Shown piece after piece: positions 1-6,839 of a stretch of DNA of 64,000 bases. The notes under the pieces were generated by a model that was not told the DNA's origin, made no database searches, and saw nothing but the letters and a program-made list of their open reading frames with translations. Origin of the DNA: an uncultured Candidatus Saccharibacteria bacterium. Its GTDB lineage: Bacteria > Patescibacteriota > Minisyncoccia > Minisyncoccales > Staskawiczbacteraceae. Where the stretch lies: positions 2,115-66,114 of the forward strand of contig CAYRHW010000002.1 in NCBI GenBank assembly GCA_964424305.1. Reading direction: 5' to 3'. How positions within the stretch are numbered: position 1 is the stretch's first letter; each line of letters starts with the position of its first letter. The position numbers were made by a program, and so were the translations under genes.

Positions 1-122
1 CGACAAAAAGGCAAATTCTCAACTTTCTACTTCAGAACCTCAAATTAACGGGCAAAAAGCTCAATTTTGAACTTAAAACACCCTTTGATAGGGTGCTTCA
101 AGCAAACAACTGTTCTACCTTG

Positions 123-411
123 CTCCGGTGCCTGGATTCGAACCAGGAACCTTTTCGTTACACTAACCCTAAAATTACTTCTAGGAATGGACTATATCAT
201 CATCCCCCGAAGGGGATGCGAGGCGCTTCGAGTAAATAGACATTTACTCTACTCCCTTGCGGGATAGTCTCTACACCTTATCGCCTAAGCGATCTTGGCT
301 CGGGATTGCCCCTGTGGGGTTTCCCCGAGTTCACCTCGTTTTTCAACCTCGATTACTCGAGGAAGCTGCAACAATTTACAGCGAATTGCTCTACCGTTGA
401 GCTACACCGGA
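123..411 (-). tRNA. tRNA-Asn(GUU) interrupted by a group I intron (exon1 411..378, intron 377..161, exon2 160..123)
   Basis: The minus strand reads UCCGGUG-UA-GCUC-AACGGUA-GAGC-A-AUUCG-CUGU | intron | UAA-CGAAA-AGGUU-CCUGG-UUCGAAU-CCAGG-CACCGGA-G. It has a perfect 7-bp acceptor stem, a canonical D arm, a T arm and discriminator G. The spliced anticodon loop CUGUUAA gives GUU. The mature sequence is close to bacterial tRNA-Asn. Exon-1 GCUGU pairs with the intronic IGS GCAGC, with a terminal U.G wobble. Confidence 0.6.
161..377 (-). ncRNA. group I self-splicing intron (IC3-like core) in the tRNA-Asn anticodon loop
   Basis: A P2-like hairpin CCUCGA-GUAA-UCGAGG is present, plus GGGG-AAAC-CCC and a GCAA-looped hairpin. 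The core AGCCAAG...AUCGC-UUAG-GCGAU-AAGGUGUAGAGACUA matches the conserved P7/P8/P3 core of small bacterial tRNA group I introns such as Azoarcus tRNA-Ile, as far as I recall that sequence. There is a UCCC-GCAA-GGGA P9-like hairpin and a CCCC-UUCG-GGGG hairpin. The intron ends in G (omega G). A P10 pairing of GUUG with UAAC is possible. Confidence 0.55.
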
Positions 412-547
412 ATAAACTATCTTATGTGCTACCACTCCACCAGAATGGTTTCTCTAATACTACTTTATTTCCCCGATCTTTTCAAGATAATATTCTTGCA
501 AATATAACAGAATAAAGATAATCTAGAATCATTAATACAACACGTAC

Positions 548-916
548 ATGATAAATTTTGATGATTTCAAAAAAATAGAATTGAAAATTGGGAAGATTCT
601 CACGGCGGAAAAAGTAGAGGGGAGTGATAAATTAATAAAATTAATGGTTGATTTTGGTACAACCCCAGCTACCCCGACAGAAGACGATCCAACCCCTACC
701 CCACTCAAGGTTACCAGACAAATAGTGGCTGGCATAGCAACGGCCTACGAGCCGGAATCATTGGTTGGCAAAGAGTTTGTTTTTGTTTTTAATCTTGAAC
801 CAAAAATGCTGAAAGGAATTGAAAGCCAGGGGATGATATTGGCCGCGACAGATAATGGGTTGCCCGTTCTAATATCTCCAGACAAACCAGTAGAACCAGG
901 AAGTGGCCTTCGCTAA
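548..916 (+). CDS. tRNA-binding domain protein (CsaA/Trbp111/EMAP-like OB fold)
   Basis: The N-terminus is KIGKILTAEKVEGSDKLIKLMVDFG. The C-terminus is RQIVAGI...LVGKEFVFVFNLEPKMLKGIESQGMILAA. Both are hallmarks of the MetRS-C/CsaA tRNA-binding domain. A P/T-rich insert is present. Confidence 0.8.
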   Translation: MINFDDFKKIELKIGKILTAEKVEGSDKLIKLMVDFGTTPATPTEDDPTPTPLKVTRQIVAGIATAYEPESLVGKEFVFVFNLEPKMLKGIESQGMILAATDNGLPVLISPDKPVEPGSGLR

Positions 917-6756: not shown

Positions 6757-6839
6757 CGGAGGGGACAGGAGTCGAACCTGCAAGCCCTTGCGGGCGCACG
6801 CTTTCCAAGCGTGTTCCTTGCCATTCGGAGCACCCCTCC
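6757..6839 (-). tRNA. tRNA-Ser(GGA)
   Basis: On the minus strand the sequence is GGAGGGG-UG-...anticodon stem CACGC-UUGGAAA-GCGUG, with a long variable arm and the T arm CAGG-UUCGACU-CCUG. The acceptor 3' strand is CCCCUCC plus discriminator G. It is a type II tRNA. Confidence 0.85.

Follow-up and report, generated by a model that had tools for sequence, protein, structure and literature searches.

This report concerns a split transfer RNA (tRNA) gene near the beginning of a 64,000-nucleotide (64-kb) stretch of DNA, here called the window, from an uncultured Candidatus Saccharibacteria bacterium (assembly GCA_964424305.1, contig CAYRHW010000002.1). A cloverleaf for tRNA-Asn(GUU) is readable on the minus strand, 411..123, with an insert in its anticodon loop. 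Our reading of the locus, to which we give a probability of roughly 0.87, is that it is a functional tRNA-Asn(GUU) gene in which U35 and U36 are separated by a 217-nt self-splicing group I intron of the phage-type IA2 subgroup, carrying no open reading frame (ORF). The gene consists of three parts, which can be compared directly with the uninterrupted tRNA-Asn gene of a syntenic relative, L245:

378..411, minus strand: tRNA-Asn exon 1, 34 nt, with the 5' acceptor strand, D arm, 5' anticodon-stem strand and loop nucleotides C32 U33 G34 U35; placed by ARAGORN in its intron-aware mode (-i) and the same as the 5' part of the L245 gene
161..377, minus strand: group I intron, 217 nt, no ORF; identified by Rfam, fold, covariation and family consensus
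123..160, minus strand: tRNA-Asn exon 2, 38 nt, with U36 A37 A38, the 3' anticodon-stem strand, variable loop, T arm, 3' acceptor strand and G123; placed by ARAGORN -i and by identity with L245

Neither ARAGORN at its default settings nor the Rfam tRNA model, each run on the whole window, picks up the split tRNA-Asn gene; ARAGORN -i reports tRNA-Asn(gtt) with a 217-nt intron and the junctions 'gctgt-Intron-taacg'. Joined in silico, the exons give a 72-nt product with the anticodon loop CUGUUAA, which ARAGORN calls tRNA-Asn(gtt) without intron mode and which is identical at 72 of 72 positions to the L245 gene. The uninterrupted tRNA-Asn of a second relative, L248, differs from the spliced product only by the compensatory change G31C/C39G in the 31:39 pair, and an uninterrupted tRNA-Asn gene with the same exons scores 70.1 bits against the Rfam tRNA model. 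Full identity with a syntenic uninterrupted gene puts the split gene far beyond chance and, because the bases beside both junctions differ, also fixes the limits of the intron at exactly 377..161. U378, the final base of exon 1, is the -1 U of the 5' splice site, and the intron closes with G161. The acceptor stem pairs UCCGGUG with CACCGGA (U1-A72), and the discriminator base, G73, is position 123. Much of this had been anticipated by the initial annotation, which a model made from the letters of the window: it described a complete minus-strand tRNA with acceptor, D and T arms and a discriminator G, assigned it to Asn(GUU), placed an insert of about 217 nt between nucleotides 35 and 36, let exon 1 end in a U that forms a U.G wobble with a GCAGC guide, and had an intron ending in G whose removal restores the CUGUUAA loop. 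All of these points hold, the wobble being U378.G369.

That the insert is a group I intron follows from its match to the Rfam model Intron_gpI (RF00028), which covers 388..168(-) over the full model positions 1-253 at 78.1 bits (E=3.9e-18; gathering score 50). The minimum free energy fold of the intron, at -82.1 kcal/mol, has z=-4.6, and none of 200 dinucleotide shuffles folds as well. It recovers P2-P9, and all of the pairs drawn are standard pairs in the window sequence; the two checks suggested with the annotation, a search with a group I covariance model and a fold of the insert in which P1-P9 were to be looked for, thus both came out in its favor. Support for each pair of the drawn structure was counted after the window intron and 47 ORF-less homologues had been aligned with MAFFT, which takes no account of structure. 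The elements are given below, with intron numbering such that the window coordinate equals 378 minus the intron position, and with percentages and compensatory changes from those 48 introns.

365..382, minus strand: P1, exon GCUGU (382..378; -5..-1) with the internal guide GCAGC (369..365; intron 9-13), U378.G369 at the splice site
377..370, minus strand: L1, a loop of 8 nt, the place of the HNH ORF in relatives
347..362, minus strand: P2 hairpin CCUCGA-GUAA-UCGAGG (intron 16-21/26-31), 6 of 6 pairs compensatory, 94% of cells paired
219..338, minus strand: P3, 338..332 with 225..219 (intron 40-46/153-159), enclosing P4-P6, the P7 5' strand, P7.1 and P7.2; supported by covariation
275..328, minus strand: P4-P5-P6 domain, supported by covariation, with compensatory changes in all parts
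328..323/305..300, minus strand: P4 (intron 50-55/73-78), 95% paired
Within the P4-P5-P6 domain, minus strand: J4/5, AAA
319..316/312..309, minus strand: P5 (intron 59-62/66-69), 76% paired
299..297/277..275, minus strand: P6 (intron 79-81/101-103), 97.9% paired
293..289/284..280, minus strand: P6a (intron 85-89/94-98), outer pairs 94.8% paired
265..271, minus strand: P7 5' strand GAGACUA with A270 (A108) bulged (intron 107 and 109-113 with 184-189), 6 of 6 pairs invariant in 48 of 48
264..253, minus strand: P7.1, UCCC-GCAA-GGGA (intron 114-117/122-125), part of the IA2 signature
252..250, minus strand: GUA linker (G126 U127 A128), part of the IA2 signature, present in 25 of 48 family members
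249..230, minus strand: P7.2, GAGUAAAU-GUCU-AUUUACUC (intron 129-136/141-148), 8 of 8 pairs compensatory
201..218, minus strand: P8 hairpin CAUCCCC-UUCG-GGGGAUG (intron 160-166/171-177), 6 of 7 pairs compensatory
189..200, minus strand: J8/7 AUGAUA (200..195) and the P7 3' strand UAGUCC (194..189), placed by alignment; AUAGUCC is part of the search pattern
161..185, minus strand: P9 hairpin CCUAGAA-GUAA-UUUUAGG (185..168; intron 193-199/204-210), 6 of 7 pairs compensatory, and the tail GUUAGUG to G161 (intron 217)

Over all 48 introns, the paired cells amount to 84.7%, compared with 35-43% after the partners are slid by 1-3 columns. Both sides have changed in 52 of the 73 pairs, and none of 500 shuffles reaches the observed values. 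The helices that covary are P2, P3 (7 pairs, 97.9% paired, 4 compensatory), P4, P5, P6, the outer part of P6a, P7.2, P8 and P9. Other elements do not vary at all: the four inner P1 pairs, including the splice-site U.G, and the P7 5' strand GAGACUA are the same in all 48, and the search required neither the guide strand of P1 nor GAGACUA. The L2 loop has the form GNNA in every intron, its G and A invariant, and L9 is always G-N-A-A. At none of the 71 columns conserved at 90% or more does the window copy depart from the family consensus. Its tetraloops are GUAA (L2), GCAA (L7.1), UUCG (L8) and GUAA (L9), as annotated, except that the further GAAA hairpin dissolves on folding: 'GGGGAAACCCC' makes up the P4 3' end, J4/5 and the P5 5' strand.

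The architecture of the intron, together with its homologues, leads us to file it as probable IA2-type. An intron with 'P7.1 and P7.2 linked by a G-U-A sequence' is assigned to IA2, as are the DNA-polymerase introns of T7-like phages (Kong et al., PMC3428280), and the 35 nt between P7 and P3' of the window intron are two hairpins joined by GUA. The annotation had likened the intron instead to the IC3 introns of Azoarcus tRNA-Ile and cyanobacterial tRNA-Leu, and there is something to be said for the resemblance. The window intron contains the core string AGCCAAG-[hairpin]-AAGGUGUAGAGACUA, and the P6-J6/7-P7 string GCCAAG...AAGGUGUAGAGACUA is identical to that of Azoarcus; the P4-P6 domain is as small as in Azoarcus, the intron lies in a tRNA anticodon loop, and bacterial tRNA introns are listed as IC3 in GISSD, according to Williams (bioRxiv 10.1101/2020.01.27.920355). 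Yet a compact, ORF-less intron in a tRNA anticodon loop, typical as it is of IC3, does not discriminate, because non-IC3 tRNA introns in Williams' seed alignment share the trait, and the IC3 core normally runs from P7 to P3' through a joiner of about 3 nt without P7.1 or P7.2. The segment P7..P7' measures 86 nt in the window, 77 nt in intron 2 of phage Twort and 54 nt in Azoarcus, and aligns without gaps in the window sequence only to Twort. An exact 25-mer over P7, P7.1 and GUA, GTAGAGACTATCCCGCAAGGGAGTA, occurs in 9 viral contigs, in introns outside tRNAs in every case; the wider core pattern AGAGACTA..AGCGCC..GATGAKATAGTCC occurs in at least 120 viral contigs, and only 5 of 124 copies among the matches listed lie in tRNA genes. 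A blastn search of the locus against 50,697 phage records likewise matches T7-like DNA-polymerase/HNH loci. The shared string therefore stands, while membership in IC3 is improbable.

The distribution of this intron was followed by scanning 185,579 species-representative genomes with the pattern ATAGTCC-N(12-42)-GTAA-N13-GGTTCRANTCC. Intron placement by ARAGORN -i is ambiguous, homologues often being labelled Thr, Tyr, Asp or His through other junctions, and junctions were re-mapped by enumeration, with a valid spliced tRNA, a -1 U and a terminal G required. Among the matches listed, to which all counts of loci below refer, 103 of 111 callable loci have tRNA-Asn(GUU) with CTGT|intron|TAA, representing at least 103 species-level genomes. 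By depositor labels, these loci are distributed as follows:

Patescibacteria: 49 loci
Cyanobacteriota: 8 loci
'Gammaproteobacteria': 7 loci
Omnitrophota: 6 loci
Acidobacteriota: 5 loci
Planctomycetota: 3 loci
DPANN archaea: 3 loci
Other lineages: 22 loci

The introns closest to the window copy come from metagenome-assembled genomes of Nomurabacteria and Paceibacterota. The lineage is site-specific, because all 17 resolvable metagenome matches to the J2/3-P5 string are in tRNA-Asn at the same junction. No near-identical donor intron was found in the metagenome scan, the best match being L268, with 182 of 217 positions identical. Viral copies were also seen. A predicted viral contig of IMG/VR, IMGVR_UViG_3300033153_009805 (L121), has an array of about 17 tRNA genes, one of them a tRNA-Asn split at the same site by a 218-nt group I intron (Rfam, 90.1 bits). 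On other viral contigs, group I introns interrupt genes to which ARAGORN -i gave the labels Tyr, Lys, Thr or Gln tRNA, although these junction calls are ambiguous.

Introns of 423-590 nt are found at 21 of the 103 loci, and most of them encode a protein of 105-125 amino acids with CxxC...HH...CxNCH motifs. One of two such proteins tested matches the Pfam HNH family (PF01844) at 28.1 bits; the other, at 19.0 bits, falls just below the cut-off of 21.4. Since the guide GCAGC lies 306-364 nt into the ORF-bearing introns, the ORF must occupy the P1 loop. In L268, the nearest metagenome relative, a 130-aa HNH ORF extends from nt 31 to 423 and runs through P1', P2, P3 and P4. In the HNH-bearing relatives L268, L269 and L278, the last 20-30 or so HNH codons (TQLP..VEKRGEFGETP) are encoded by P1', P2, J2/3, P3 and P4, so that these bases are constrained twice over, by the protein and by the structure of the RNA. 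Though ORF-less, the window copy retains the HNH-tail reading frame at 312-392(-) (QLPRVIEVEKRGELGETPQGQSRAK), and it is because the ribozyme core encodes the C-terminal tail of the HNH protein that tblastn searches with HNH proteins match window 392..312. The window intron itself, with its 8-nt L1 and no ORF, encodes no homing endonuclease, and a search of the window for an HNH gene that could act in trans gave only this dual-coding stretch inside the intron. The lineage would spread through an HNH homing endonuclease, the product of the P1-loop ORF, directed at the exact tRNA-Asn site; lacking the HNH gene, the window copy could presumably not home by itself.

Empty sites are found among the nearest relatives of the window organism. 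The tRNA is adjoined by a tRNA_bind gene (548..916, plus strand), an identical copy of which is present on three other assemblies, all with an identical split tRNA-Asn. The surrounding genes include a lysine-rich sigma-70, DnaG and a short ProRS, the content of G + C in the window is about 40%, and the named homologues of the neighboring protein are from Pacebacteria, Staskawiczbacteria, Nealsonbacteria and Paceibacterota. Together with the closest introns, these features make a member of the Patescibacteria the likely source of the window. The two closest relatives, L245 and L248 (84% and 81% identity), have the same sigma-70/DnaG neighborhood and an uninterrupted tRNA-Asn(GUU), which makes a recent acquisition of the intron probable. 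In the 122-aa neighboring protein, the window is closer to each of the two intron-less lineages (84% and 81%) than these are to each other (78%), and these identities weakly favor one recent gain over two losses.

The L245 locus (L245:~60-387(-), contig CAYNAF010000021.1) has a peculiarity of its own, a 298-nt insertion with an 83-aa GIY-YIG gene (PF01541, 63.9 bits), flanked by a 27-nt direct repeat that comprises 14 nt upstream of tRNA-Asn and the first 13 nt of the gene. This arrangement points to a second, unrelated endonuclease element with its target in the 5' part of this tRNA gene, which the duplication regenerates.

Splicing of the window intron would be expected to follow the established group I pathway, from which the following steps are drawn. 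The exon bases GCUGU would pair with the GCAGC guide in P1, setting U378.G369 at the 5' splice site, and exogenous guanosine would attack after U378. The guanosine would be bound in P7 at the putative guanosine-binding pair G269-C190, which is assigned by analogy with Tetrahymena and Azoarcus. The terminal G161 would next take the same P7 site, and the freed 3'-OH of U35 would attack after G161, joining the exons into a CUGUUAA loop and a 72-nt tRNA. As CCA is not encoded, it would be added after splicing. As in the Twort ribozyme, the core may owe some of its stability to P7.1-GUA-P7.2 and to the GNRA loops conserved at L2 and L9, which would act as buttresses.

Several observations weigh against a functional, self-splicing gene or soften parts of the case for it. 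Splicing of the window precursor is something that we infer from sequence. A P10 helix (exon-2 +2..+6 with intron U4-U8, 5 pairs, with a one-base offset) is not conserved, being 37% paired across the 48 introns, and the invariance of AUAGUCC, the terminal G and TAA in the genome set arises only from the construction of the search. In the anticodon stem, A27.A43 is a mismatch, but one that the intron-less relatives share. ARAGORN finds no other tRNA-Asn gene within the 64-kb window, and a second intact one may lie in the genome beyond it. The choice between gain and loss depends on one 122-aa protein with no usable outgroup, relatives at 54-62% identity being without synteny or an adjacent tRNA-Asn. 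A promoter-like site at 485..457 is no better than shuffled expectation, and a scan for consensus terminators called none, including at a hairpin at 71..95.

Some of these points, along with the loss of the homing endonuclease gene, would fit a decaying relic, that is, a tRNA-Asn pseudogene with a non-splicing intron in an organism where another tRNA-Asn gene, outside the 64 kb visible here, does the decoding. We consider this very improbable. All of the helices are intact, with no deviation at the 71 conserved columns; the exons are identical to the uninterrupted gene of a relative; the sequence is identical in three independent assemblies; and the absence of an endonuclease is the normal state of the family, ORF-less members being the majority (about 80 of 103). 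The mismatch, common to uninterrupted genes, is a trait of the lineage and not a sign of decay. A different concern is that a true group I intron might depend in vivo on a protein cofactor, either a host factor or a maturase-like activity, as many group I introns do (review PMC3984707). The window intron is small, with few peripheral elements and a weak P10, so dependence on a protein deserves a hearing, and yet it seems rather doubtful. Small bacterial tRNA introns self-splice in vitro, and so do phage IA2 introns, including that of the T7-like Pf-WMP3 (PMC3428280); moreover, the GNRA loops L2 and L9 and the P7.1/P7.2 module are the usual RNA-only stabilizers, and the locus has no linked candidate for a cofactor gene. 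The reading as a functional tRNA-Asn(GUU) gene with a self-splicing intron is the one retained here.

Two further features lie on the downstream side of the tRNA:

1..239, plus strand: 3' part of a convergent protein gene with its start beyond the window, recognized from the L242:2-571 translation (at least 189 aa)
71..95, minus strand: hairpin CACCCU-AUCAA-AGGGUG followed by UUUUAAGU, read from the sequence, 28 nt downstream of the tRNA

The hairpin is tentatively a possible terminator, perhaps a bidirectional one, and its stem is kept in L248 with a different loop. The convergent gene bears on what else the region might encode. It has no in-frame stop until 237..239, and some 40 codons at its end thus lie in antisense orientation opposite the downstream hairpin, exon 2 and the last 79 nt of the intron. 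The L248 version of the protein, from a locus without the intron, is 27 codons shorter, its stop falling on the reverse complement of the anticodon loop, and because the length differs in this way the tail is incidental. Altogether five mechanical plus-strand ORFs are called over the locus, and ORFs of 47-70 aa cover the region. The annotation had dismissed the small ORFs as artefacts, and indeed none of the five has a Pfam family above cut-off; that verdict was too sweeping for the one ending at 239, which is the read-through tail of a real gene. The idea that the region is transfer-messenger RNA (tmRNA), some other structured RNA or a set of small plus-strand protein genes can draw on these ORFs, one of them in the frame of a true neighbor, but is scarcely credible: ARAGORN finds no tmRNA, Rfam yields only Intron_gpI here and no tmRNA match, and a tail whose length varies with the presence of the intron is no conserved coding feature. 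The group I reading, for which a better fit to tmRNA had been named as a refutation, stands.

The convergent gene probably encodes a large serine recombinase, of which this would be the C-terminal part; some of its homologues carry PF13408 (recombinase zinc ribbon), and its own C-terminal fragment has no Pfam domain. A recombinase that abuts the 3' end of a tRNA suggests an integrative element with tRNA-Asn as its attachment site. Many homologues of the gene are fragments of about 97 aa on short contigs, as if assemblies break there. Elsewhere in the window, ARAGORN calls a tRNA-Ser(GGA) at 6757-6839(-) that the whole-window Rfam scan missed; given to Rfam by itself, it reaches 45.3 bits (gathering score 29), and the miss is an effect of the speed filter, not of an unusual tRNA.

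The item of greatest interest lies outside the window, on archaeal contigs with the same intron lineage. Among the 103 loci are split tRNA-Asn genes on three contigs of DPANN archaea, two of Pacearchaeota and one of Woesearchaeota (JAGVXA010000008.1, CAYIBB010000024.1 and JAFCDH010000004.1):

L132:1943-2170, plus strand: archaeal split tRNA-Asn
L236:108-326, minus strand: archaeal split tRNA-Asn
L142: archaeal split tRNA-Asn with a 423-nt intron

The tRNA-Asn exons on these contigs have G1-C72, not the bacterial U1-A72. Genes for aIF2-beta, an MCM protein with an archaeal winged helix, TBP, a PNO1/Dim2-type KH protein and FtsZ lie within a few kb of the copies, and with such neighbors the contigs are not mis-binned bacterial DNA. 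The Rfam Intron_gpI model gives 83.1 and 97.2 bits for two of the introns, and that of L142 is below threshold. Archaeal group I introns have been found only in ribosomal RNA genes (Nawrocki 2018), a Pacearchaeota tRNA case was dismissed as mis-binning (Williams 2020, bioRxiv 10.1101/2020.01.27.920355), and our literature search found no report of group I introns in archaeal tRNA genes. The contigs suggest that such introns exist and that they have moved between bacteria of the candidate phyla radiation (CPR) and DPANN archaea.

Group I introns make the tRNAs of CPR bacteria difficult to detect (Lui et al. 2021). Because default ARAGORN misses the gene and tRNAscan-SE, according to the paper on its version 2.0, is not designed for tRNAs with group I introns, genomes like that of the window would be reported as having no tRNA-Asn, which distorts inferences on completeness and codon usage in CPR bacteria. 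Bacterial tRNA introns, it would seem, are not all IC3, a phage-type IA2 ribozyme having apparently colonized a tRNA anticodon, and the filled site here, an empty one in each of two near relatives and the versions elsewhere that bear HNH genes together make a compact natural system for the study of tRNA-gene homing and endonuclease loss. One could go further and join all of these threads. The window intron would then be an ORF-less, recently fixed copy of a single HNH-driven, phage-derived IA2 lineage specialized on CUGU|UAA of tRNA-Asn; the lineage would have spread over more than 12 bacterial phyla and into DPANN archaea, where its members would be the first documented group I introns, as opposed to bulge-helix-bulge introns, of archaeal tRNAs; and the split gene might be the only tRNA-Asn gene of the window organism, making all Asn decoding ribozyme-dependent. 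Taken whole, this broader account is tentative, at a little under even odds.

None of this overturns current understanding, since the class to which the locus belongs has already been catalogued. Williams (bioRxiv 10.1101/2020.01.27.920355) expanded the four classical bacterial tRNA settings, Leu.3Ug, Arg.5Ug, fMet.2Ug and Ile2.5Ug, all listed as IC3, to 21, and the seed alignment of that study holds Pam37.Asn.4Ug, the same tRNA at the same site. The annotation was right that host and position are not those of the four classical cases; the setting is nevertheless not new, given the catalogued Asn.4Ug and the 103 or more genomes with the intron. The window locus is a further member of this known, widespread and experimentally uncharacterized class, which is defined computationally only. 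It shares with Asn.4Ug the tRNA-Asn GUU host, insertion after loop nucleotide 4 (35/36), the -1 U, the terminal G, and extra structure between P7 and P3' followed by AGCGCC. The Pam37.Asn.4Ug seed is a cyanobacterial variant in which the P2 region is longer and P7.1-GUA-P7.2 is replaced by one long '..CAAUAA..' element; it matches loci L182 and L162, the variant recovered from Phormidium-type genomes, whereas the window copy is a shorter CPR-type variant with the GUA linker and another P1 guide.

Intron 2 of phage Twort, a crystallized IA2 ribozyme, offers a close architectural parallel to the P7 region. The Twort orf142 record (AF132670.1) contains three Rfam-confirmed group I introns, and intron 2 has, in the same order as the window intron, P7 with a bulged A, a P7.1 tetraloop hairpin, GUA, P7.2, CUCGAA, P3', P8 and GAUAUAGUC. 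The two agree at 137 positions overall and at 54 of 77 in P7..P7', and have a similar 5' end, AAAU. They differ in that the Twort intron, at 252 nt, lies in a protein-coding gene of the phage; its P5 region is larger, and past P9 it continues into additional 3' elements. The window intron, placed in the anticodon of a tRNA, stops a short way beyond P9. The IC3 archetype, the Azoarcus tRNA-Ile(CAU) intron (Aol6.Ile2.5Ug in Williams' seed), shares with the window intron a bacterial tRNA anticodon-loop host, a length of about 200 nt, the lack of an ORF, the GCCAAG...AAGGUGUAGAGACUA string, a minimal P4-P6, and P2 and P9 helices capped by GNRA loops. Its insertion point is 36/37 and not 35/36, and apart from its shorter P7..P7' without P7.1 and P7.2, its J8/7 is AAGGCA where the window intron has AUGAUA.

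Finally, the introns of the T7-like phages PhiI, W31 and Pf-WMP3 (PMC3428280) resemble the window intron in their IA2 character and P7.1-GUA-P7.2 module, and they resemble its ORF-bearing relatives in their HNH-family homing endonucleases. In both Pf-WMP3 and the tRNA-Asn lineage, the ORF overlaps the ribozyme core, although it does so at different places, starting in P6a in the phage introns and lying in the P1 loop and reading through P1', P2 and P3 in the tRNA-Asn lineage. The phage introns reside in protein genes; that of the window resides in a tRNA, without an ORF.

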